A DNA stretch of 20,000 nt from an uncultured virus (IMG/VR IMGVR_UViG_2645728113_000006) (Duplodnaviria > Heunggongvirae > Uroviricota > Caudoviricetes), in the IMG/VR virus record IMGVR_UViG_2645728113_000006; one strand, given 5' to 3'. Under the pieces are notes generated by a model. It was not told the origin of the DNA. It did no database searches and saw only the letters and a list, made by a program, of their open reading frames with translations. Shown in pieces: positions 3,313 to 20,000 of this stretch. The position numbers and the translations under genes are program-made. Position 1 is the first letter of the stretch, and each line of letters starts with the position of its first letter.

Positions 3313-3385
3313 GTTGTATGCCTGAACAGTATCGACTCGTCACGACAATCTACTTATCCTAGATTATTTGATACGAGATCAAATC

Positions 3386-4192
3386 ATGTTGCCCGAGCCA
3401 AGGCTGGCGCTAAACGAACTACTCAAGGAGCGAACCCTGCTCTGGCATAAGATTGCTGAAAATCATTATGTTGACGAGTTTGAGGTTCGGCGACTTTTTA
3501 ATAAGCTTGATCGGCTGATAACAGATCCCGGTGCCGAGTTCAGTATTGCACCAGCCGCTTTGCATGAGCAGGCATATCTTTACGCTTACCAAATGAAAAC
3601 CTCTAACGCCCTGCGGTTGTTTGAAGATGCTCGCCGTGCGGGACTTGATGGGCTTGCCGTATCAATTTCTACGGCCCATGCTTTATATATTTGTGGCGAG
3701 GTCGAAATGTCCAGGGAAGAGATATTGCGTACTGACTATTCTGATGCGAATAACAGGGGGCTGTCAGGGCTGGCTGATACCTGCGTTCATACTGGCTTGC
3801 TGAAAATGGCCAGGGATCTTTACATTCGGTCTGGAAAACAGGGTGGCGAAGTAAGCACTCAAGTTTTGCGTGCGGCCGAAATAATGGACCAGATTGGCGC
3901 GACGGATGAACAAGTAATGCGCAGGATCGCGACGGCTGCAAAAATTATCAAGTCTATGTCTGCGCATCCGTTCATTGCATTTGACCTGTTCGCTATGCAG
4001 GGCGAGGGAATCCTCTACCGCTTCGTAGTGAATGGGAGTACTGAAAGGCTGGTCGAGATTGATATGGCAATTGATGAGGCATTAATCGCTGATTTCGATG
4101 AGGAAATTGATGACGTATTGTCGATTGGGATTGCGCCTTATGAGTTCGGTTCGAATATGTTAGCTGCGGATGGTTATTATGTCGGTGTGTAG
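3386..4192 (+). CDS. Hypothetical moron protein, helical/TPR-like N-terminus; possible partner of the downstream HEPN protein
   Basis: Long ORF (ATG 3386, alternative TTG 3368) with lower GC than the tail genes; overlaps the next gene by 14 nt. No family recognised with confidence. Confidence 0.65.
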   Translation: MLPEPRLALNELLKERTLLWHKIAENHYVDEFEVRRLFNKLDRLITDPGAEFSIAPAALHEQAYLYAYQMKTSNALRLFEDARRAGLDGLAVSISTAHALYICGEVEMSREEILRTDYSDANNRGLSGLADTCVHTGLLKMARDLYIRSGKQGGEVSTQVLRAAEIMDQIGATDEQVMRRIATAAKIIKSMSAHPFIAFDLFAMQGEGILYRFVVNGSTERLVEIDMAIDEALIADFDEEIDDVLSIGIAPYEFGSNMLAADGYYVGV

Positions 4193-4556
4193 TGATGATC
4201 TGTTGTTGTTAGCCGAGTCACTTATTGGAAGTAAGGATGAGGTTGGCAATCGTGCGAGCATAAGCAGAAGTTATTATGCACTGTACCATGAGGCTACAAT
4301 AGCCGCATCGGCGCTCTCTTTAAAAAGCAATCCAGATGTAAAAACAAGTCACGATAAATTAATTTCGCGCTTTACCGGTGCGACTAAAGGTCTTGCCTCA
4401 ATTGGGCGCGGCATTCTCAAGCAAAAGCGATTGCGTGCAATGGCTGACTATGAGATCGGCTCAGATCTCAATGCGTCCGAGGCGAGGTTCCATTTGGCTA
4501 CAAGCAAGCGGCTTGTAAGTGACTTGCGAAGGATCGCTGATCCTGCGAACTCTTAA
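4179..4556 (+). CDS. HEPN-domain protein (putative toxin/RNase)
   Basis: 125 aa from ATG 4179. RASISRSYYALYH and R..ADYE motifs are typical of small HEPN proteins. Confidence 0.75.
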   Translation: MSVCSDDLLLLAESLIGSKDEVGNRASISRSYYALYHEATIAASALSLKSNPDVKTSHDKLISRFTGATKGLASIGRGILKQKRLRAMADYEIGSDLNASEARFHLATSKRLVSDLRRIADPANS

Positions 4557-4815
4557 GATCTTTGCTGGATCAGGTCTTGAACAGAGTTTTCCTGTTATCC
4601 GCCACCCTGCTACAGTCCCGCCAAACCAAAGAGGGAACGACATGCGGATTTTTGCTGTGATGTGCGAGGACCATTGATGTGATGCTGTGTTAGAGCGCAA
4701 GAGACTTTGGCAGTTTTATATGGAAGAGCGAGAAATCGCGAGTAGCTCCTATTGATTGCTGGCGCTGATCATGGCCGAATGATAGCTTTCAACCGTATTA
4801 ATTTTTTTCCACGGA

Positions 4816-5691
4816 GTGGATGTGCCAGCCCTTATTCCCCAATTGGTCAATGCTGCACTCGATCCTCATACATCGGTTGCCAGCTTGCTAAGGCATGCGC
4901 TAGTAGCGGCAAATAGGCTTAGTCTCGTTGACCTGGCCGATTGGATGAGTTCGGAACTCAATGGCTACAAAACCGCTTCACTGCCGGAGTATAGAAAGCT
5001 CCGTGGCACTCTCATTTGTGAGCACGAATTTGGGGGGTGGATGCCTTTAGAGGTCACGCATGCGGCAACCCTTAATATGGTGTCTCAGCGACCGTTCTAT
5101 CAGTCCATCCCGGAATTAGAGCGATTAACTAGCAGCGGCGGGCCTTTCGTCGTTTTTTTTCCTCCAAAGAATGAAGTTTACTTACGCTCATTAATGAGGC
5201 CACCGACTAGGCCGGCAGTGGAAATACAGGCGAGCCAGATATTTGGCCTAATAGAGCTAGTTCGTAGCAGAATATTACAGTGGGCACTAGACCTTGAGTC
5301 CAAAGGGGTTATGGGTGAAGGTATGTCGTTTACATTGCAGGAGCGTCAGATCGTGGCTGCACAGCACTACCATTTTGGCGATGTTACTGGATCTCAAATT
5401 CAAATTGGCTCGAGTGGGTCGAATCAGTCCATCGCACCCGGTGACAGCACGGGAGCAATGAATGCGTTAATCAACCTGCTTCGTGATGTTCTAGCTCGGA
5501 ACGAGATTGATGGCGATGTGGCTGCCGAGTTGGTTGCCGAGCTCAAGACTCTGGAAGCTCAAGCCGAATCACCACGGCCTAAGGCATCAATTATCAGAGA
5601 AACCGCGCTGAGTATTCAGAGGGTCTTAGAGGGGGTTGCCGGTAACGTATTAGCGACCGCCGCTCCATTGATTTATTCGCTGGTGAGTTGA
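4816..5691 (+). CDS. AbiTii-domain protein (putative abortive-infection effector)
   Basis: N-terminus ALDPHTSVASLLRHALVAANRL...W...ELNGY...LPEYRKLRG resembles the AbiTii domain as I recall it. GTG start after GGA; terminator follows. Confidence 0.75.
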   Translation: MDVPALIPQLVNAALDPHTSVASLLRHALVAANRLSLVDLADWMSSELNGYKTASLPEYRKLRGTLICEHEFGGWMPLEVTHAATLNMVSQRPFYQSIPELERLTSSGGPFVVFFPPKNEVYLRSLMRPPTRPAVEIQASQIFGLIELVRSRILQWALDLESKGVMGEGMSFTLQERQIVAAQHYHFGDVTGSQIQIGSSGSNQSIAPGDSTGAMNALINLLRDVLARNEIDGDVAAELVAELKTLEAQAESPRPKASIIRETALSIQRVLEGVAGNVLATAAPLIYSLVS

Positions 5692-5695
5692 TGCC

Positions 5696-5720
5696 AGCCC
5701 AGTCCCGCGCTGGGCTTTTT
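5696..5720 (+). terminator. Rho-independent terminator
   Basis: AGCCCAG-tcccgcg-CTGGGCT-TTTT between convergent genes. Confidence 0.8.
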
Positions 5721-5723
5721 GCT

Positions 5724-6272
5724 TTAAACATTCCGAGGAGTTCGCCGATCCTTGAGTACGGAATCTAGGTCTCGTGCTAATTGGTCGGCGAGAATTCCGA
5801 GGATTGTCCATATGGCCATTGAGCGGGTGCGGATGACAATCGCATGCGTCTCCTCATCCTCTCCTTCGGGCTCATAAGGCGTGAAATTCTTCTGATACAC
5901 GGCGAACCCGATCGGCTCGCTGATTTTGAAGAATTTTGCTAGCAGAGGCTGCAAGCGCACTGGTTCGTTTCGATGTCCTACCGCGTTGCGAAGGTTATTT
6001 AGCGCCTTAATCGAATCCCATAGTTCAGGCTCCATAGCTGAACCCACGATTGCCCTGCAGAGCTCCGTAGCAGTGCCGAAAGTAAAAATATCGTTTCGGC
6101 TATAAGGGCGAGAGTATTGGGCTACCCCAGCGGCTATCAGATCATGCAATTGCTCCTCGACAATCATGTGGCCGCGTAGCACTGCCGACAGCAGTTCACT
6201 GTCCCGTTCGAAGGTGCGATGAAACTGCGCGGTCTTCTTCTCGATGTCCTTTGCGAAAAGTTCTCTTTTCAT
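5724..6272 (-). CDS. HEPN-like (MtlR/DUF4145-type fold) protein with an Rx4H motif
   Basis: 182 aa; VLRGHMIVEEQL...LNNLRNAVGH contains R-x4-H preceded by the usual helix pattern. Confidence 0.6.
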   Translation of the reverse strand: MKRELFAKDIEKKTAQFHRTFERDSELLSAVLRGHMIVEEQLHDLIAAGVAQYSRPYSRNDIFTFGTATELCRAIVGSAMEPELWDSIKALNNLRNAVGHRNEPVRLQPLLAKFFKISEPIGFAVYQKNFTPYEPEGEDEETHAIVIRTRSMAIWTILGILADQLARDLDSVLKDRRTPRNV

Positions 6273-6365: not shown

Positions 6366-6851
6366 TCATTGCGGCATCGGTGGCCAGCTTTTGGACTCTT
6401 CGACTACGTTGGCGATTACTTCTTCGATGGTTGTCTTTTCGCCGCGAGCCTCGGCATGAAAAAGATCAATTATTGCGTTGAGCATTATTTCCTGTGTGAC
6501 GCCATGCTTCGCTGCTTCGCCTTGTAGATTTTCGATGGTGCTTTTCGGTAACGCTAGGACTAGGTCTTTCTTGCCCTCAGCGACTAGCGCCATTTCTAAA
6601 ACCTCGGGCTGGTCATCAACATCCTGCAGTTTTTCCACTTCACAACCGAGTGCTTTAGAGAGCTTGACTAATGCGGTCATGCGAGGAACCGAGGTGCCCA
6701 TCTCATACCGTCCTATTTGAGGAACGCTTAAGCCACTCGCCTTCGCAAGATCGCGCTGTGTCATTCCCGCGTCTGCGCGGAGGCGGACGAGCCGGGAAGG
6801 GAAGCCTTTCGGGTGGTACATGCTGATTCCATACTGTGGTGTGGAAAACAT
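6366..6851 (-). CDS. XRE-family HTH transcriptional regulator with a possible C-terminal ribbon-helix-helix-like segment
   Basis: RLVRLRADAGMTQRDLAKASGLSVPQIGRYEMG is a classic XRE HTH. Divergent from the arc/antirepressor genes. True start could be the internal Met (MYHPKG). Confidence 0.85.
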   Translation of the reverse strand: MFSTPQYGISMYHPKGFPSRLVRLRADAGMTQRDLAKASGLSVPQIGRYEMGTSVPRMTALVKLSKALGCEVEKLQDVDDQPEVLEMALVAEGKKDLVLALPKSTIENLQGEAAKHGVTQEIMLNAIIDLFHAEARGEKTTIEEVIANVVEESKSWPPMPQ

Positions 6852-6950
6852 GATGTTCGCGAAACATTGTCAGCGCAAGAAGATGATGGCAAATGATGTT
6901 GACTAGACGTCGTAAATGATGCGTAATGATGTCTAGTGATTGTTAAGGAG
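6850..6950. promoter_or_regulatory. Divergent promoter/operator region with ATGATG repeats
   Basis: ATGATG at 6850, 6883, 6893, 6916 and 6926 (two pairs 10 bp apart). Inverted repeat ACTAGAC (6902) / GTCTAGT (6931). TTGACT at 6899 is a candidate -35. RBS AAGGAGG at 6945. Confidence 0.55.
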
Positions 6951-6955
6951 GTTTT

Positions 6956-7123
6956 ATGAGGTCGGAAAAATCGCGATACCCGCTCAGCTTGGAGGCATCT
7001 GTGAAAGTGCAGGCAGAAGGTGAAGCAAAGAAAAATCGACGCAGTTTGAATGCCGAACTCGGACTGTTAATCGAGGAGGGACTGAAATGGAGGGAGCAAA
7101 CGAGCAAGCAGGCAGTAGCCTAA
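6956..7123 (+). CDS. Arc-like ribbon-helix-helix repressor (55 aa, absent from the ORF track)
   Basis: Manual translation: MRSEKSRYPLSLEASVKVQAEGEAKKNRRSLNAELGLLIEEGLKWREQTSKQAVA*. Arc signature A..N.RSLNAE; strong RBS TAAGGAGG. Confidence 0.85.
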   Translation: MRSEKSRYPLSLEASVKVQAEGEAKKNRRSLNAELGLLIEEGLKWREQTSKQAVA

Positions 7124-7191: not shown

Positions 7192-8055
7192 ATGAGCGAT
7201 ATTAGCACAACCGTTTCGAATGTCATCCCGTTCAATTTCGGCAAGCAGCAGGTGCGTACGCTGCTGATTGATGATCAGCCGTGGTTCGTGGCTAACGATG
7301 TTTCTGCTGCGCTTCAGTACAGCGAAGCGTCGGCGATGACTCGGCATTTGGACGACGATGAAAAGGGTCTGTCGATTGTGCAGACCCTTGGCGGCGATCA
7401 GGAAATGCTGGTCATCAACGAGTCAGGCCTTTACTCGGCAATCCTGCGCAGCCGTAAGGCTGAAGCCAAACGCTTTAAGAAGTGGGTCACCGCTGAAGTC
7501 CTCCCGGCGATTCGCAAGCAGGGCAGCTACCAAGATTCCAGCAATAAAATGAAGGCGCTGATGGATGATCTGGTCGACATGACCGAGACGAATGCACTGA
7601 AGGGCTTGGCGCGCCACAAGGTGGCACATCTTCCAGCCTCCATTCAGCGCAGTGCTTCCGCTCGTATTTATTCGGCAGTGCACACACGTTTCAACGTGCC
7701 GCGTCTTGAGCTTATCCCTGCAAGCCAGTTCGAGTCGGCGTGCAACTTCATCGCGGCCTACGCCGTTCTTGAGGGAGAGTTCATTCCGAAGGGGAACGGC
7801 AAGCCATTCGACATCCCGGAGAAGCTTGGCCAGTGTGAGCGCTATCTCGTCAGCGCAGATCCTCACGGCAATCGGCAGGTCACGCCGGTGCCAATGGGGG
7901 CGTTCGTCCTGACTCGGCAGCAGTTCATGCAGTCAATGCTTGTTGATCGAGATATGCCAGTTTCCACAGCGGAGATGTTCGAGTTTGTAGCGCTGGCGAC
8001 CGAAAACCTGCGCTACCGCTTTCTGTTCCAGGCTGCCCGGAGGGACGCAGCATGA
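7192..8055 (+). CDS. BRO-N domain phage antirepressor
   Basis: FNFGKQQVRTLLIDDQPWFVANDV...INESGLYSAILRSRKAEAKRFKKWVTAEVLPAIRKQG is BRO-N; followed by a P22 Ant C-terminal-like region (VHTRFNVPRLELIPASQF). ATG 7192 follows AGGAAG. Confidence 0.9.
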   Translation: MSDISTTVSNVIPFNFGKQQVRTLLIDDQPWFVANDVSAALQYSEASAMTRHLDDDEKGLSIVQTLGGDQEMLVINESGLYSAILRSRKAEAKRFKKWVTAEVLPAIRKQGSYQDSSNKMKALMDDLVDMTETNALKGLARHKVAHLPASIQRSASARIYSAVHTRFNVPRLELIPASQFESACNFIAAYAVLEGEFIPKGNGKPFDIPEKLGQCERYLVSADPHGNRQVTPVPMGAFVLTRQQFMQSMLVDRDMPVSTAEMFEFVALATENLRYRFLFQAARRDAA

Positions 8056-8627
8056 GCATGGAACTTGTCACACTAAAAATTACCGGCACGTCACCGCTGA
8101 TGATGCACAGCGACAAGCTGGCCAACCCTTTGAATCCAGCAACAAAGGCTCACAAGGAATTGACCGGTAAGCGCAAGAAGACGGACGACGATCATCTTGC
8201 CATTGCTCGCTCTGAGTTTATCGCTGGTGCCTACCACGATGAAAAGCTTGGCTTTTTTGTGCCAGGTGCGAATTTCGATGCGACGTTCTTGGCTGGCGCG
8301 AAGCTCCAAAAGCTGGGCACTCAATGGAAGCGCGGAGCGGTTGTGATGACTGACAAGGCGAAGCTTGAGTTCTCTGGCCCGACAACGCCTGACTCTCTTT
8401 GGGAGGATCAGCGGTTCGTTGACTGCCGCGGAGTAAAAGTTGGTCAAGCCAAGATCATGCGATACCGCCCGATCTTTCTTGAGTGGGCCGTGGAGCTGGA
8501 AGTTGCAATCAACGCTGACGTACTCAACATCGAGGAAGCAAAAAAAGCGATCACTGATTCTGGCCTGTTGATTGGGGTCTGTGAATACAGACCGCGCTTC
8601 GGTCGCTTCGAGGTGGAATATGTCTGA
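8052..8627 (+). CDS. Stand-alone Cas7/RAMP-like RNA-binding protein (candidate Vipr-type effector)
   Basis: 191 aa with RAMP hallmarks recognised by eye: N-terminal strand LKITGTSPLMMH, FFVPGANF (cf. IPGSS.KG), RYRPIFLEWAVELEV, and a C-terminal Gly-rich loop GLLIGVCEYRPRFGRFEV. ATGA-coupled to the antirepressor and upstream of a structured RNA array. Confidence 0.75.
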   Translation: MSMELVTLKITGTSPLMMHSDKLANPLNPATKAHKELTGKRKKTDDDHLAIARSEFIAGAYHDEKLGFFVPGANFDATFLAGAKLQKLGTQWKRGAVVMTDKAKLEFSGPTTPDSLWEDQRFVDCRGVKVGQAKIMRYRPIFLEWAVELEVAINADVLNIEEAKKAITDSGLLIGVCEYRPRFGRFEVEYV

Positions 8628-9078
8628 GTTGACAAAGCACCCGAGCTATAAGCAAGCCGTTGAAGACTTCCTCAAGGAGTTCAAATACGGTGATTTGGTC
8701 GGACATGAATGGCTGGAGGCTCGTTTCGGCATGCCGTCAATGACCGATTCGAAGTCGCTGACTGTTGAGAAGTTTCGTGAGCGTCAGTTCGAGTGGCTGG
8801 CGAACGTCGAGGCATTCAAGTCGGACTTGCTCAAACATCATCAAGTCTGCCTTCAGTCAGTGCGCGGGCGTGGTTATCGATGGGTGCCGCCTCATGAGCA
8901 GACAGAAGTTGCGGTAACTGAGTTGGGCCGGAATGTCAGGAAGGCGTTTCGCGGGAGTGGAGAAAAGCTGAGAAATTTGAGGATTACGGAGCTTACCGAT
9001 GATCAGCGACGGGCAAACCTTGACGCTGTTGCAAAGTTTTCCGCGCTCCAGGGCATGACTCGAAAGGCTCTTGGTTAA
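8620..9078 (+). CDS. Hypothetical protein, accessory gene between the RAMP-like gene and the RNA array
   Basis: 152 aa from ATG 8620 (MSELTKHPSY), 8-nt overlap with the RAMP gene. LQSVRGRGYRWV resembles a winged-helix wing. Stop codon lies inside the first array repeat. Confidence 0.75.
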   Translation: MSELTKHPSYKQAVEDFLKEFKYGDLVGHEWLEARFGMPSMTDSKSLTVEKFRERQFEWLANVEAFKSDLLKHHQVCLQSVRGRGYRWVPPHEQTEVAVTELGRNVRKAFRGSGEKLRNLRITELTDDQRRANLDAVAKFSALQGMTRKALG

Positions 9079-9130
9079 TAGCAGCGTAATATCCTTTCTA
9101 TGAGAGGGCATTGCGGTGCGAATGCATCAT

Positions 9131-9190
9131 GTGGCGTGGCGAGACAAGGTTGGGCGAGGTCTGGTTAGGTCGGGCATGTCTAGGTGAGGG
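9131..9190 (+). ncRNA. Putative guide tract 1 (12 NN-GGY pentamers)
   Basis: GT-GGC GT-GGC GA-GAC AA-GGT TG-GGC GA-GGT CT-GGT TA-GGT CG-GGC AT-GTC TA-GGT GA-GGG; exact 5-nt register. Confidence 0.8.
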
Positions 9191-9245
9191 CTGACAACAG
9201 CGTAATGCCGATTGGAATCAGTCGGCATTGCGGTGGCAGAAGCCG

Positions 9246-9310
9246 CTGGCAGGTTCTGGTCCGGCAAGTCGCGGCTAGGCCCGGCGGGGTGTGATTTGAT
9301 TTGGTATGGG
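9246..9310 (+). ncRNA. Putative guide tract 2 (13 NN-GGY pentamers)
   Basis: CT-GGC AG-GTT CT-GGT CC-GGC AA-GTC GC-GGC TA-GGC CC-GGC GG-GGT GT-GAT TT-GAT TT-GGT AT-GGG; exact 5-nt register. Confidence 0.8.
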
Positions 9311-9375
9311 CTGATAACAGCGTAATGTCTCTTCTTGGAGGAGGCATTGCAGTTTTAGAAGGTTTCGATTGACAT

Positions 9376-9400
9376 GGCCCGCATTGCGGGCTTTCGTGTT
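9376..9400 (+). terminator. Probable terminator closing the array transcript
   Basis: GCCCGC-att-GCGGGC followed by TTTCGTGTT. Confidence 0.55.
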
Positions 9401-9449
9401 GCTCTCTGCCTGGTGATAAAGTCTCGCCATATCTCAACGAGGGAGCGAC

Positions 9450-9851
9450 ATGAAACTGTTCGTAGGATTTTTTTTTATTTTGAGCTTGGTCGGCTGCTCT
9501 AGTTCGCCCATATCTGCCGACAAGGCCGATCCGGTGCCAAGCTCTCGGCTTTATGCCTTCGCTGCAAAGTCCGATTCTCAACTCATTGTTACCCGAGATG
9601 GCGGGATGTTTGGATCTGGATGCAATTACCGTTTCTATATCAATGGGGAGCTTGCTGCCGAATTCTCCTCGGGGGAGGTGGCCAGGTTTGGTGTTAAGGC
9701 CGGCCGAGTAGTGCTTGGCGCGAAGCCAAGCGCAGCTTGCGGGGGAGGGATGATGGTTGAGCGCGATGTCGAAATAAAAAGCGGAGAAGTTTTGAGAAGA
9801 AGAATATCCATGTCGCCCGGCGGTCCAGATATATCAGCTACCGCTTATTGA
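9450..9851 (+). CDS. Lipoprotein moron
   Basis: Signal peptide with lipobox LVGC (MKLFVGFFFILSLVGC); RBS GAGGGAG; terminator downstream. Confidence 0.85.
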   Translation: MKLFVGFFFILSLVGCSSSPISADKADPVPSSRLYAFAAKSDSQLIVTRDGGMFGSGCNYRFYINGELAAEFSSGEVARFGVKAGRVVLGAKPSAACGGGMMVERDVEIKSGEVLRRRISMSPGGPDISATAY

Positions 9852-9898: not shown

Positions 9899-10498
9899 AT
9901 GTCAGCACTCGCAATTAATTATCAGCCGATGACTACCATCTTGCTTTATGGGCAGCTTAGGCAATTTGGAAGATCTTTCAGGTTGTCAGTTAAGTCCCCA
10001 GCCGAGGCTATCAAGGCGCTATGCGTACAGATCCCTGGCTTCGAGCGGTTCCTGTCGAACGCCAAGTCTCGCGGCATTGAGTTTGCCGTGTTTCGAGGGT
10101 CAAAAAATCTTGCAGAAAAAGAATTAGGATTTGGCGGTTCCGGAGAAATCCGTATAGCGCCTGTAATTACGGGCCGAAAGCGCGCAGGCCTGATGCAGAC
10201 CATTTTGGGCGCCATATTGATTGTGGTAGGTTTTTTTGCTTTCGGGTCGACAACAACTACAGGCGCAGCGCTCATAGCGGGCGGTATCGGTAGTGCTGCT
10301 GGGGGCGTAATCCAAATGCTTAGTCCGCAGGCGGCAGGCCTCAAGATGAGCGCTGCGCCCGAAAACCAGCCTGGATATGCATTTGGCTCGGCGCAGAACA
10401 CAACTGCATCCGGCAACCCGGTCCCGCTCTGCTACGGCAAGCGCAGGGTCGGCGGGGCGATTATTAGCGCCGCGATATACGCCGAAGACCAGATGTAG
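9899..10498 (+). CDS. Tail assembly protein, lambda gpI-like
   Basis: ATG 9899 after GGAGA. LYGQLRQFG...SPAEAIKALC ubiquitin-like N-terminus, a hydrophobic Gly-rich segment, and YAFG...GNPVPLCYG. Confidence 0.92.
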   Translation: MSALAINYQPMTTILLYGQLRQFGRSFRLSVKSPAEAIKALCVQIPGFERFLSNAKSRGIEFAVFRGSKNLAEKELGFGGSGEIRIAPVITGRKRAGLMQTILGAILIVVGFFAFGSTTTTGAALIAGGIGSAAGGVIQMLSPQAAGLKMSAAPENQPGYAFGSAQNTTASGNPVPLCYGKRRVGGAIISAAIYAEDQM

Positions 10499-10557: not shown

Positions 10558-13500
10558 ATGGGCGCAGCACAAAAGATCGATATACACGGCGCCAAAGGCG
10601 GCGAAGGTAAACCAAAAACGCCGACTGAGGCCCCGGACAGTCTGCGCTCTGTTGCTATCGCAAAAATGCTCATTGCCGTGGGCGAGGGTGAGTTCGAGGG
10701 CACGCCAACTGCCAAAGACATCTATCTCGACAACACGCCCCTGCAAGACCCTCAAGGCAACATAAATTTCCCGAACGTGAAGTGGGAGTGGCGCACCGGT
10801 GCCGTGGACCAGAGCTATATCCAGGGCATCCCTTCGGTCGAGAACGAGACCACGATCAGTACCGAGCTGCGCAGCGGGACACCGTGGGTACGGGCCATCA
10901 GCAATACCCAGCTTTCCGCTGTTCGCGTCCGTTTTGCGTGGCCTGTGCTTCAGTCCGTGGACTCTGGTGGCAACGTCAATGGCTACCGGATTGAATACAA
11001 GGTTGAGCTGGCCACCGATGGCGGCGCCTATCAGCAGGTGCTGAGCGAGGCTGTCGACGGCAAGACCACCAGCCTGTACGAGCGCACGCGCCGTATCAAT
11101 TTGCCGAAGGCCACTTCTGGTTGGCTGATGCGGATCACTCGCCTGACCGCGAATCAGAACAACAACAAAATCTCCGACACGATGCAAATTGCCGGCTTCA
11201 CCGAGGTGATCGACGCGAAGATCCGCTACCCGAATACTGCGCTGCTTTACATCGAGTTCTCGGCCGAGCAGTTCCGCAGCATTCCTGCCGTTACCGTCGA
11301 GACCAAACTGAAGAAGATGCAGGTGCCGAGCAACTACGACCCAGTGTCGCGCACCTACTCGGGCGTCTGGGATGGCACGTTTAAGCAGGCTTGGACCGAC
11401 AACGCGGTCTGGATGACCTACGACATCAGTACCGCCGACCGCTTCGGCCTGGGTCGCCGCATCAAGCCGTGGATGGTTGATATTTGGGAGTTGTATCGTA
11501 TTTCCCAATACTGCGACCAGTTGGTGCCGGACGGGAAGGGGGGCCTGGAACCGCGCTTCATCTGCAACTTGAACCTGCAGAGCAAAGCCGATGCCTGGTC
11601 ACTGCTGCGTGACATATCGGCGATCTACCGAGGCATGACCTACTGGGCCCAGGGCCAGGTCTTCACCCTGTCGGATATGCCGCGTGCCACTGACTTCGAC
11701 TTCGCCTATACCAGGGCCAACGTCCTTGACGGTAAGTTCACCTACTCCAGCGCGTCGGAGCGTACCCGGTACACCCGGGCGCTGATCAGCTACGACAACC
11801 CGCTGAACAACTACGACACCGATGTCACTGCTGTGACCGATGCAAAGCTCCAGCGGCGCTATGGTGACAATCCGCTGGAGATCAGCGCAATTGGTTGTAC
11901 CCGCGAGTCCGAGGCCCAGCGCCGCGGCAAGTGGGCGCTGCTGACCAACTCCAAGGATCGGGCGGTTACCTTCAAGGTCGGCCTCGACGGTCGCATCCCG
12001 CTTCCTGGTTACGTGATCCCCATTGCTGACGAACTGCTTGCAGGTCGGCCGGTGGGTGGCCGTATCTCGGCGGTGAACGGAAAGGTCATCACCCTGGACC
12101 GTGACACCCAGGCCAAGCCCGGCGACCGGTTGATCCTCAACTTGCCAGACGGCAAGTGCGAGGGGCGCACGGTGCAACTGGTCAGTGGCCGACAGGTCAC
12201 CGTAACCCTGGCCTACTCCGTACCACCGGAGCGTGAACTAGTGTGGGCGCTGGACGCCGACGATCTGGCGATCCCGCTTTACCGGGTGGTCAGCGTGGCG
12301 CGGCCAGAGCCCGGCGTATTTGAAATCTCAGCCGTGCAGTACGACCCCAGCAAGTTCGATCACATCGACACCGGCGCCCGGTTGGAAGAGCGGCCTATCA
12401 GCGTTGTACCGATCACCGTAGTTCCTGCCCCGACGAGCGTCGACATCACGTCGAACTACTCCGTGGACCAGGGCCTGGCAATCAGCACCATGAATATCTC
12501 GTGGCCTGCTGTGGCTGGCGCAGTGGCTTATGACGTGGAGTGGCGCAAGGACAGCGGAAACTGGATCAAGCTGCAGCGCACCGGCTCTACCAGCGTTGAC
12601 GTCACCGGCATTTACTCGGGCGCATATCTCGCCCGTGTTCGGTCGGTGAGCGCGTTCGAGATTTCGTCCATTTGGAAGAGCTCCAATCTGACCAACCTGG
12701 AAGGGAAGGTCGGCCTCCCGCCGGCCGTGGCGTTCCTGTCCACCACTAGCGAGCTGTTCGGCATTGGCATTCGCTGGGGTTTCCCGGCTGACGCCGAGGA
12801 TACCCAGCGCACCGAGCTCTGGTATGGACAGGCTAATGATCTGTCGGTGGCGACCAAACTCGCAGACTTGGCGCACCCCCAAGCGAATTACAGCATGCAG
12901 GCCCTAAAGGCCGGCGCGCAGTTCTTCTTCTGGGCTCGCCTGGTCGACCGTACCGGTAACGTTGGCCCGTTCTATCCCGTCGGTAACGGCGTGATGGGGA
13001 TGGCAAGTGCCGATGCGGCGCCGGTGCTGGATTTGATCGCCGGGCAGATTGGGCGTACGGAGCTGGGCAAGGACATCACGGACGAGATCGACAAGATCCC
13101 AGGGCTGCAGGCGCAGATCGACGCGCTCGATGGGTTGTCCGCCTACGACCCGGAGTCGACCTACCTTGAGTTTGACCTAGTGGTGGTTGGTAAGCGGATC
13201 TACCAGGCCACCGGCCCGGTACCCGTCGATACGCCACCACCGAATGCCAACTACTGGCAGGACGTGGGTCAGGCGGTGGTCACTGCCAATGGCCTTGCGC
13301 GTCAAGTTGAGATCAATACCACCAGCATCACCGAACTGGACGGGGTGGTCACGGCTCAGGCGTCAAGTCTTCAGGCGTTGCAATCGGCTTATCGGGACGA
13401 CACGGGGGAGGGGGATCTGGTTGATGCACTCCAGGGCTACAACGCCTCGGCGAGTTTCGCGCAGGAAGTGAAGACGCAGGCCACGAAGAACGCAGCCATG

Positions 13501-14121
13501 GTGCAGCGGCAGACCGAACTTACTGCAGAGGTGGGCGACGTCGCCGGCACCGTAACTGATCTGGAAAGAGTTGTGGTCACTGATCGGGAGGCGACTGCCC
13601 AGGCCATCCAGCAGGTCGGCGTGAAGATCGGCGAAAACACGGCTGATATCCAGACCGTGAGCAAGGCCCAAGCAGACACAGACGGCAAGCTCTCAACGAT
13701 GTGGTCCGTGAAGATGCAGCTCAATGCGAATGGCCAGTACGTCGCGGCAGGCATCGGGCTTGGTATCGAGAACGTAGATGGTCAGTTGCAGAGCCAGTTC
13801 CTGGTGAGCGCCGACAGGTTCGCCGTGGTGAACAACATCAATGGCGTGCTTTCTACACCATTCACCGTGCAGAACGGCCAGGTGTTCATGCGATCTGCCT
13901 TCATCGAGGACGGCAGCATCTCGATGCTGAAGATCGGTGAGGCTCTGCAGTCCAACAACTACGTCGCTGGCGTTCAGGGGTGGCGTTTGGATAAGGCCGG
14001 GAACCTTGAGTTCAACGGTCCGGCACCTGGTGGTGGACGCCTGACGATGACCAATCGTGCGATCAAGGTGTACGACGAAAACAACGTCAAGCGGGTGCAG
14101 CTAGGGGATCTGACAGCATGA
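10558..14121 (+). CDS. Host-specificity / central tail tip protein, lambda gpJ-like
   Basis: 1187 aa; GAKGG N-terminus, YPNTAL, WDGTFKQAWTDN, YCDQLVPDG.GG.EPRF, FN3-like repeats, and C-terminal SQFLVSADRFAV...GWRLDK.G. Confidence 0.96.
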   Translation: MGAAQKIDIHGAKGGEGKPKTPTEAPDSLRSVAIAKMLIAVGEGEFEGTPTAKDIYLDNTPLQDPQGNINFPNVKWEWRTGAVDQSYIQGIPSVENETTISTELRSGTPWVRAISNTQLSAVRVRFAWPVLQSVDSGGNVNGYRIEYKVELATDGGAYQQVLSEAVDGKTTSLYERTRRINLPKATSGWLMRITRLTANQNNNKISDTMQIAGFTEVIDAKIRYPNTALLYIEFSAEQFRSIPAVTVETKLKKMQVPSNYDPVSRTYSGVWDGTFKQAWTDNAVWMTYDISTADRFGLGRRIKPWMVDIWELYRISQYCDQLVPDGKGGLEPRFICNLNLQSKADAWSLLRDISAIYRGMTYWAQGQVFTLSDMPRATDFDFAYTRANVLDGKFTYSSASERTRYTRALISYDNPLNNYDTDVTAVTDAKLQRRYGDNPLEISAIGCTRESEAQRRGKWALLTNSKDRAVTFKVGLDGRIPLPGYVIPIADELLAGRPVGGRISAVNGKVITLDRDTQAKPGDRLILNLPDGKCEGRTVQLVSGRQVTVTLAYSVPPERELVWALDADDLAIPLYRVVSVARPEPGVFEISAVQYDPSKFDHIDTGARLEERPISVVPITVVPAPTSVDITSNYSVDQGLAISTMNISWPAVAGAVAYDVEWRKDSGNWIKLQRTGSTSVDVTGIYSGAYLARVRSVSAFEISSIWKSSNLTNLEGKVGLPPAVAFLSTTSELFGIGIRWGFPADAEDTQRTELWYGQANDLSVATKLADLAHPQANYSMQALKAGAQFFFWARLVDRTGNVGPFYPVGNGVMGMASADAAPVLDLIAGQIGRTELGKDITDEIDKIPGLQAQIDALDGLSAYDPESTYLEFDLVVVGKRIYQATGPVPVDTPPPNANYWQDVGQAVVTANGLARQVEINTTSITELDGVVTAQASSLQALQSAYRDDTGEGDLVDALQGYNASASFAQEVKTQATKNAAMVQRQTELTAEVGDVAGTVTDLERVVVTDREATAQAIQQVGVKIGENTADIQTVSKAQADTDGKLSTMWSVKMQLNANGQYVAAGIGLGIENVDGQLQSQFLVSADRFAVVNNINGVLSTPFTVQNGQVFMRSAFIEDGSISMLKIGEALQSNNYVAGVQGWRLDKAGNLEFNGPAPGGGRLTMTNRAIKVYDENNVKRVQLGDLTA

Positions 14122-18789: not shown

Positions 18790-19473
18790 TCAGTTGCTTA
18801 CCGACTTGATTAGATCCGGGTCGTTGTTTCGCACATTCCCCACGACTGTGTCGACCCTGAACCATTCGAAGGTATCGGCTGGATCTCCCTGGTGCAGCAC
18901 CATCTGTTCGGCGCGCTCCTTTGATGTGGCTGGGTCCAACCATTCTCGGGCCAGGTCCGGCGTCAGTACTACGGGGCGCCGATCGTGAATGTCCACCATG
19001 CCGCCGGCGCTGTCGGCGGTGATGATCACGAAGCCATCGTGCTCGCCTGGGCCTTCATCGGAATCAGGCAGTTGGCCTATGGCCGCACAGAGCACGGGCG
19101 CACCATCCTTCCGGCGTATTAGATAGGGCTGCTTTTTGGGGCCGCCTTCGTCCACCCACTCGAACCAGTTGTTTATGGGCGTGATCGCCCGGTGTGGCCA
19201 GATTGCACGAAAGAATGGGCCGTGGGCCACGTTCTCTACGCGCGCATTGATGGGCGGTGCCCGGTCCTTGGCCCAGTGTGGCCGCCATCCCCACCGAACC
19301 ATGTCGGCGTGCAGCAACTCGCCCTGGAGGTGGAGCAGGGCGACCTGAGTGGATGGGGCCACGTTGTAGCGCTCGAGCGGCAATTCACCCGCGGAGTTCG
19401 CCAGGGCATTGTTCATGCCCAGCGTTGCCACGTACTCACGAATATCGCTGTACTGCGAAATTCTCCCGCACAT
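18790..19473 (-). CDS. SOS response-associated peptidase (SRAP/HMCES family, abasic-site protection)
   Basis: Begins MCGR (catalytic Cys2); RYNVAPS, WG..P.W, INARVE, FEW, IHDRRPVVL motifs. Confidence 0.95.
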   Translation of the reverse strand: MCGRISQYSDIREYVATLGMNNALANSAGELPLERYNVAPSTQVALLHLQGELLHADMVRWGWRPHWAKDRAPPINARVENVAHGPFFRAIWPHRAITPINNWFEWVDEGGPKKQPYLIRRKDGAPVLCAAIGQLPDSDEGPGEHDGFVIITADSAGGMVDIHDRRPVVLTPDLAREWLDPATSKERAEQMVLHQGDPADTFEWFRVDTVVGNVRNNDPDLIKSVSN

Positions 19474-19538
19474 ACACACCTCTCCATCTGTCGAAATCCC
19501 CTACAGAAAAATTGACCGCAAGCCGACTGCAAAGTTAA

Positions 19539-19554
19539 CTGTACATTCGTACAG
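19539..19554. promoter_or_regulatory. LexA (SOS) box
   Basis: CTGTACATTCGTACAG = CTGT-N8-ACAG, between the divergent SRAP and umuD-like genes; TTGACC candidate -35 at 19512. Confidence 0.85.
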
Positions 19555-19574
19555 TGCATGTAAAAGGCAGCATC

Positions 19575-20000
19575 ATGAGCTTTACCATTTTAGGCCCTAT
19601 ATCCGAAGGCGGCACGAAGCTGCCTTTCTGCTCGTTTCGGGTGCCTGCGGGGTTTCCATCGCCGGCAGCCGATCACATCGAGCAGCACATCTCATTGGAT
19701 GAGGTCTTAAACATTAGGGCGCCGCACGTCTACCTGATCGCCATCACCGGCGAGAGCATGCAGGGGGCCGGTATTTTCGAGGGCGACCTTGCGGTTGTAG
19801 ATCGGTCGATTGAGCCAGCGCACGGGCATATCGTGGTGGCTCTGCTGAACAACGACCCTGTCTGCAAGCGGCTGTGCAAGCGTGGGAAAGAGGTCATCCT
19901 GTTGTCGGAAAACCCGAAATACCCGGCGCGGTATGTTCTGGAAGGCGACGAGCTTTCTATCTGGGGCGTGATCACCAGCACCGTGCGCAGCCATGTCTAA
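19575..20000 (+). CDS. umuD: UmuD/RulA-like S24 peptidase (error-prone polymerase V subunit)
   Basis: VPAGFPSPAADH autocleavage site, GESM catalytic Ser, VCKRL catalytic Lys; no HTH; SOS box upstream. Confidence 0.85.
   Translation: MSFTILGPISEGGTKLPFCSFRVPAGFPSPAADHIEQHISLDEVLNIRAPHVYLIAITGESMQGAGIFEGDLAVVDRSIEPAHGHIVVALLNNDPVCKRLCKRGKEVILLSENPKYPARYVLEGDELSIWGVITSTVRSHV

Follow-up and report, generated by a model that had tools for sequence, protein, structure and literature searches.

VIPR systems are RNA-guided systems of mostly viral loci, whose vrRNAs carry 9–16 repeats in which GGY and NN alternate, with a conserved structured tail behind them (10.64898/2026.04.26.720920). In the type II VIPR of Escherichia phage SUSP1, one Vipr protomer occupies each repeat, binding GGY and leaving NN to pair, and the target is silenced and not cut (10.64898/2026.04.26.720920; available text of 10.64898/2026.04.26.720927). 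For VIPR homologues, the same sources describe filaments, gapped pairing, silencing on either strand and help by Vap1, and according to the available text of the second, loss of any of the SUSP1 Vipr residues K33, K82, R138 and D177 abolishes silencing (10.64898/2026.04.26.720920; 10.64898/2026.04.26.720927). Vap1, the accessory protein of type II systems, is predicted to bind DNA and has no nuclease (10.64898/2026.04.26.720920). The SUSP1 system targets a satellite recombinase. A clade of type II VIPRs from P. fulva prophages (>90% identity) carries guides against other Pseudomonas prophages, mainly against lysogeny-lytic switch regulators, and also against other VIPRs (10.64898/2026.04.26.720920). 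Orphan vrRNAs of SUSP1-family phages target vrRNA loci and vipr, and their match to self is below that to rivals, which the available text of the report reads as avoidance of autoimmunity (10.64898/2026.10.15.759431). The VIPR preprints, as far as available, relate Vipr, a RAMP homologue with a thumb and a G-loop, to the class 1 CRISPR-Cas backbone proteins Cas7, Csm3 and Csf2, which likewise form RAMP filaments on guide RNA (10.64898/2026.04.26.720920; 10.64898/2026.04.26.720927).

The DNA analyzed here (IMG/VR record IMGVR_UViG_2645728113_000006; 20,000 nucleotides, hereafter the window) covers, as judged from its genes, the stretch from tail to lysis genes in a lambda-like Pseudomonas prophage, the genus being assigned by nearest homologues. 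Features lie on the plus strand unless stated otherwise. An insert between tail genes K and I ends with an HTH repressor gene, an arc gene, an antirepressor gene, two further genes and 330 non-coding bases. The repressor gene (6366–6851, minus strand; Pfam HTH_3, E = 4.7e-14) is divergent from the operon and found in the same place in phage Medea1. The gene for the Arc-like repressor (6956–7123; phrog_228, E = 3e-4; annotated "Arc family" in Medea1) likely opens an arc-ant-vipr-vap-vrRNA operon and is followed by a Bro-N antirepressor gene (7192–8055; phrog_245, E = 1.5e-57; Pfam Bro-N), whose stop overlaps the start of vipr. Phage Medea1 carries HTH-arc-ant-vipr-vap in equal order and location, and we take the HTH-arc-ant block to resemble the immI region of P22. 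A promoter scan returned no forward promoter for the arc-ant-vipr operon; inspection by eye revealed a possible promoter and operator upstream of arc that the scan had missed (6899–6927; TTGACT-17-CGTAAT under the inverted repeat CTAGAC...GTCTAG). A low-GC insert of four genes (3368–6272) separates tail gene K from the HTH repressor gene and is likely a defence moron. It encodes a 274-aa protein of unknown function, a 128-aa protein with a weak HEPN match (PADLOC, E = 0.002), an AbiTii-domain protein (Pfam, E = 2e-36) and, on the minus strand, a 182-aa protein with an RxxxxH motif.

A first-pass annotation made from the letters alone had described positions 8052–9400 as two overlapping genes followed by three structured repeats around two pentamer tracts, with a RAMP-like first protein, no adjacent cas genes and a tentative link to VIPR-type systems. 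All of this was borne out. The vipr gene (8052–8627) encodes a 191-aa putative RAMP-family guide-RNA-binding protein that matches the solved SUSP1 Vipr (PDB 36pp) with E = 1.3e-46 over residues 3–190 and is a full-length homologue of the Vipr encoded in the SUSP1 genome (42.5% identity), from which a RAMP fold is predicted. SUSP1 residues H17, K33, R39, K82, R138 and R179 are identical here (H19, K35, R41, K84, R139 and R180), and D177 and W178 correspond to E178 and Y179, so that three of the four residues essential in SUSP1 are identical and D177 is replaced by Glu. Vipr homologues made up 819 of 960 candidates. The second gene (8620–9078, 152 aa; phrog_5926), which overlaps vipr by 8 bp, is 24% identical (113 aa aligned, E = 7e-12) to the gene following vipr in SUSP1; by this match the locus has a vap1-like accessory gene, as type II systems do. 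A single-sequence structure model of the vap1-like protein was poor (pLDDT 56).

Neither open reading frame had a match in NCBIfam or PADLOC or a Pfam match above noise, and no cas genes were found beside them among the flanking genes scanned (Pfam, NCBIfam, PADLOC); the neighbours of the module are antirepressor, lipoprotein and tail genes. The locus thus differs from class 1 CRISPR-Cas, which has a cas operon and a repeat-spacer array with contiguous spacers: it is a minimal locus in a prophage tail region, with neither cas genes nor a CRISPR array, and its pairing is non-contiguous. Sequence comparison confirmed the stretch 8052–9400 as a VIPR and placed the module as type II-like. Systems of this type were published in April 2026, and this locus is a further member of that kind.

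The array contains three repeats that begin at 9073, 9189 and 9309 (spacing 116 and 120) and have strong hairpins (z = -3.1, -6.9 and -5.1). Repeat 0 (9073–9130), a long and a short hairpin with no guide upstream, probably sets the 5′ end of vrRNA1. Guide tract 1 (9131–9190) comprises 11 units (9131–9185; nine GGY, one GAC and one GTC triplet) and a closing GAGGG. Repeat 1 (9188–9245) has three stems, a 4-bp GCTG/CAGC tetraloop stem, a 13-bp stem and a 5-bp stem, and separates tract 1 from guide tract 2 (9246–9310), which comprises 12 units (9246–9305; eight GGY, two GTY and two GAY triplets) and a closing ATGGG. Repeat 2 (9308–9352), with two stems, would form the 3′ tail of vrRNA2, and a terminator-like hairpin at 9376–9400 may close the array, as its position suggests, such sites being no commoner than in shuffles. 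The best period-5 GGY run scored 9/12, compared to a maximum of 4–5 in each of 30 dinucleotide-shuffled versions of the window, in agreement with the near-constant GGY triplets and occasional GAY/GTY variants noted in the first pass. The tracts of 12–13 pentamers reported there are real, but the count had taken in the closing NNGGG unit. We count this unit as scaffold, because it is mostly ATGGG in the clade (65 of 106 guides) and pairs with the target at both bases in 0/120 and 0/119 sites.

Across 43 distinct inter-guide repeats of the clade loci, the recurring fold combines the 4-bp tetraloop stem with a 13-bp stem whose sequence varies and a short third one. Pairing of the first stem is preserved in 101 of 106 clade guides, with GCTG/CAGC and GCCG/CGGC as its forms. 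The array repeat is presumably without a hammerhead core. No Rfam match was present in the window, and no other tract with this tail was recognized by eye among 14 further genome matches with 7/12 GGY. A third guide past repeat 2 was ruled out, the GGY letters of 9353–9375 being lost in the near-identical loci L001, L268 and L269. Compared to SUSP1, the vipr-vap1 order and a downstream NN-GGY array are shared, whereas the present locus lies in a temperate Pseudomonas prophage, is fused behind arc-ant and has two guides, none of them upstream of vipr. Its three-stem repeat bears by eye no likeness to the SUSP1 pseudoknot tail, and for the P. fulva clade, too, no 3′ pseudoknot was reported (10.64898/2026.04.26.720920).

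In three of four RNA runs (two studies), contigs extend over the array of a close relative, which indicates presence only, since DNA may be in the libraries. Runs X6, X11 and X15 cover parts of 8859–9560 with L001-like alleles, and X9 covers 7957–8183; the best share among the RNA runs was 0.41. These contigs carry no information on strand, ends or level, and uncovered regions are uninformative.

For decoding, the published one-base-skip code was applied, in which NN of each unit is read and one target base per unit is skipped. When the 7.2-Mb host genome was searched with one skip, guide 1 matched best in the prophage's own J gene (19/24), and for this reason the guides were read as codons. 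Units 2–10 of guide 1 spell, in sense orientation, VDKWELYRI of the tail-tip gene J. Nine consecutive units of guide 2 spell, in antisense orientation, NTPGYAFGS of tail gene I. The choice of the nine core units followed the observation of the near-match to self in J. Viral contigs contain at least 120 exact occurrences of each nine-unit one-skip pattern; all of these fall within a J or I reading frame, the skipped base being the third of its codon, and the J and I sites often lie on one contig, about 1.1 kb apart. A two-skip control of guide 1 gave one stretch in viral contigs, and skip lengths of 0, 2 and 3 gave nothing above the chance tail in the own genome. In genomes of the genus, the exact J site was present in 74/400 (73/399 without the unpublished genome G151) and the I site in 38/400; reversed patterns gave 0. 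The units flanking the nine-unit cores match fully in 0–1 of about 120 sites, and full-tract matches reach only 20/22 (J) and 20/24 (I) because these units match at one base or none. The targets thus match at ≥80% by the one-base-skip rule with the skip on the wobble position, as in SUSP1 (10.64898/2026.04.26.720920). The non-contiguous guide proposed in the first pass was right as to gapped pairing; the one target base skipped per unit had been missed and the targets had not been decoded. Two viral contigs (L171 and L182), and likewise two genomes, carry tail I genes in tandem, with two gene I sites at a distance of about 580 bases.

Some of these data would also suit a decaying relic, i.e., a disused array whose matches record past conflicts: for only nine of the 11–12 units was a matching site found, non-GGY triplets occur in several units, and vipr was found with this query in only 4 of 400 genus genomes (one of them the unpublished G099). 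We consider this highly unlikely. Both the vipr and the vap1-like reading frames are intact, the targets are still common, and of the four tract changes that separate the window from L001/L268, three affect scaffold letters, the nine core dinucleotides of each guide being unchanged.

The own tail genes I (9899–10498) and J (10558–14121) lie 1–2 kb downstream of the array and differ from the guides at read positions. The J site (11476–11502) matches guide 1 at 16 of 18 read bases, with a Lys-to-Ile exchange and Leu encoded by TTG; the I site (10364–10390) matches guide 2 at 14 of 18, with a Thr-to-Gln exchange and Ser encoded by TCG. As a reference set, we used the best 80 of 315 gene I relatives, of which 75 had no vipr in the DNA examined, four VIPR-positive loci and the close relative L348 having been set aside. 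A J site was scored for 68 of these vipr-less relatives, and in 63 of them it matches the guide 1 core at 18/18 bases; the guide 2 core is matched at 18/18 in 69 of 75. The Lys of the J site is retained in 69 of 69 vipr-less J genes. Departures of the own genes from conserved codon positions 1–2 are concentrated in the sites (J, 2/18 versus 8/998 elsewhere; I, 4/18 versus 7/283), with Fisher values that overstate this enrichment, because bases within one codon are not independent.

These differences bear on whether the guides are directed at the late genes of their own phage, where incomplete pairing (18/22 on J) would partly repress tail genes in the lysogen or tune the amount of tail tips. 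Such a role would be consistent with the own J gene, of all sites in the host genome, giving guide 1 its best one-skip match, with targets close to the array and with a host that has no rival target: tblastn detected no second I or J gene in the host genome, and no guide 2 site occurs in it within two mismatches. However, at each of the six core bases where own and foreign alleles differ, both guides agree with other phages, and guide 2 matches its own site at only 15/24, so that we regard self-regulation as very improbable.

The J variant (D-I-W-E-L-Y-R) was found in six viral stretches, five of them with a J guide, while the sixth ends 150 bases upstream; the Leu codon is TTG in all six, although the search pattern allowed CTN. 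The canonical J site is present in none of the eight loci with a J guide, and locus L270, whose Vipr is 98% identical, has no J guide and a canonical J site. Between the window and L001, 0 of 60 bases differ in the J patch, compared to 5–11 in the following 14 60-base blocks and 4–16 in the blocks just before. The carriers of the J guide are not independent events, since they have a common guide ancestry (same odd units; L266/L429 are 100% identical to the window), and the J variant may have a single origin and have spread by recombination. The I variant (ENQPGYAFG) was found in nine viral stretches, two with the I guide, two with a VIPR that has no I guide and five without vipr within 4 kb. 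The link between variant and guide is thus tight for J and loose for I (2/9). In L348/L435, a close relative with a 96% identical gene I, a partial antirepressor match and the lipoprotein gene are present, but vipr, vap and guides are not, which looks like a loss of the VIPR module with retention of the variant I site.

The same VIPR with the same targets might also have come to coexist with divergent own alleles by drift or exchange of mosaic tail modules, guides persisting where the phage already differed. The I data fit such a history, as the variant occurs without the I guide in seven of nine stretches and the own gene I diverges from its vipr-less kin along its entire length, with lower GC3; in addition, VDRWEMYRI-type J sites occur in ten VIPR-positive loci for which no J guide was called, and a clade-wide test of self-avoidance (see below) was mixed. 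For J, on the other hand, the variant was never found apart from a J guide (5/5 assessable stretches), is absent from all 69 vipr-less kin and is unchanged on J backgrounds 74–100% identical to that of the window. Overall, we consider drift or mosaicism rather unlikely.

We therefore favour, with good confidence, the reading that the VIPR silences the tail genes of rival sibling phages by means of its guide RNAs and that the own J allele is probably resistant. The layout of the operon suggests that it would be transcribed and cut at the structured repeats to yield two vrRNAs of about 116–120 nt. By homology to SUSP1 and P. fulva, Vipr would form a filament with one protomer per pentamer, in which GGY is buried and NN pairs with double-stranded DNA, every third target base being skipped; Vap1 would help, and the bound DNA would be silenced, not cut. 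The binding of one GGY per protomer with NN presented for pairing, and action by silencing, had been proposed in the first pass and agree with what is described for SUSP1 (10.64898/2026.04.26.720920; available text of 10.64898/2026.04.26.720927), by analogy to which they may be expected here. As computed, the guides spell codon positions 1–2 of conserved motifs in tail-tip gene J and tail assembly gene I of sibling temperate phages, which are common in the genus. A roadblock in I and J could leave a sibling that co-infects, superinfects or is induced at the same time short of tail tips, and tail-fibre and lysis transcripts downstream would possibly be reduced by a polar effect. The own J copy would, somewhat more tentatively, escape guide 1 through its changes at read positions; a corresponding escape of the own I copy from guide 2 is conceivable but doubtful. 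Against an escape of J speaks its full-tract match (82%), which is only two bases below that of rivals and exceeds the 80% cut-off for target calling of the discovery paper; for P. fulva, no self-hit ≥80% was reported (10.64898/2026.04.26.720920). The escape changes would include the synonymous recoding of Leu from CTN to TTG and of Ser from AGY to TCN, only read positions counting under a wobble-skipping code.

Compared to the known systems, whose targets are a satellite recombinase (SUSP1), mainly switch regulators (P. fulva; by the main text) or vrRNA loci and vipr (orphan vrRNAs; available text), both guides of this locus hit virion genes, i.e., essential structural genes of sibling phages (10.64898/2026.04.26.720920; 10.64898/2026.10.15.759431). 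A self-match below the rival match is shared with the orphan vrRNAs, whereas avoidance here would take the form of an amino-acid change and first-position synonymous recoding (available text of 10.64898/2026.10.15.759431). Tail genes I or J are not named as targets in the running text of the VIPR preprints, as far as available. While VIPR itself is already known, the locus adds decoded tail-gene targets and a guide-linked J allele. Rival and own sites form natural pairs that differ by two read bases in J and by four in I, and they make testable which number and position of mismatches let a phage tell self from sibling in a code without a PAM. A passage on guide-target mismatches was not found by word search in the available parts of 10.64898/2026.04.26.720927 and 10.64898/2026.10.15.759431, nor in the text of 10.64898/2026.04.26.720920. 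Virion genes are indicated as a main target class of Pseudomonas prophage VIPRs, and the presence of targets in up to about one in five genomes of the genus bears on superinfection and polylysogeny.

As a more tentative extension, the guide array and the resistant tail-gene allele may form a linked weapon-and-antidote unit that spreads through mosaic tail modules by recombination. If so, the cost to the carrier would be the Lys-to-Ile exchange and the recoding of Leu 2.3 kb away, tight linkage would aid joint spread, and rival VIPRs would reply, e.g., with the TT-reading J guide of L276 or the guides of L281 and L287 against vipr. RNA-guided conflict would then directly drive amino-acid change in phage structural proteins.

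NN-GGY arrays near homologues, proposed in the first pass as a check, were readily found: at least one guide was called in 52 of 54 Vipr loci. Among 86 distinct clade guides, a match ≥0.9 in a pool of 134 loci was obtained for 38 with one skip, for one with no skip and for none with two skips or with shuffled units. This count leaves out one locus, with which it becomes 41/89. None of the 38 best matches sits in the guide's own locus, and this unselected test agrees with one-skip decoding. Scoring was confined to the last 12 units, and the guide parser may place 5′ ends too far out. Those clade targets that could be labelled by similarity to genes of the window lie in J, I, L, tape measure, arc, ant and vipr; the target pool consisted of DNA around vipr and gene I only and is biased to tail genes, so that the share of tail targets cannot be derived from it. 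With flank-matched controls, the self-match was lower for 15 of 21 guides, tied for one and higher for five, and only 17 of 31 comparisons showed a site less identical than its flanks (p = 0.81). The clade-wide signal of self-avoidance is thus mixed and not established.

Several guides of other prophages were observed in the course of this analysis. Those of L281 (8080–8144) and L287 (8077–8136) aim at vipr, as described for P. fulva guides (10.64898/2026.04.26.720920), and the L281 guide matches the vipr gene of this window at 23/24 read bases and its own at 17. Locus L276 (8201–8260) carries a J guide related to guide 1 with TT in place of CT at the Leu codon, which fits TTG- or TTA-recoded J alleles and is a possible counter-move. 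Past the lysis genes, the window contains an SOS-type pair (18790–20000) consisting of a PRK09951-like gene and a UmuD-family gene. Finally, guides of L004, L274, L277, L283, L284, L286, L288, L307 and L312 converge on the motif LQQGGQ(L/I)KD in a gene that looks like that for a tape-measure protein.
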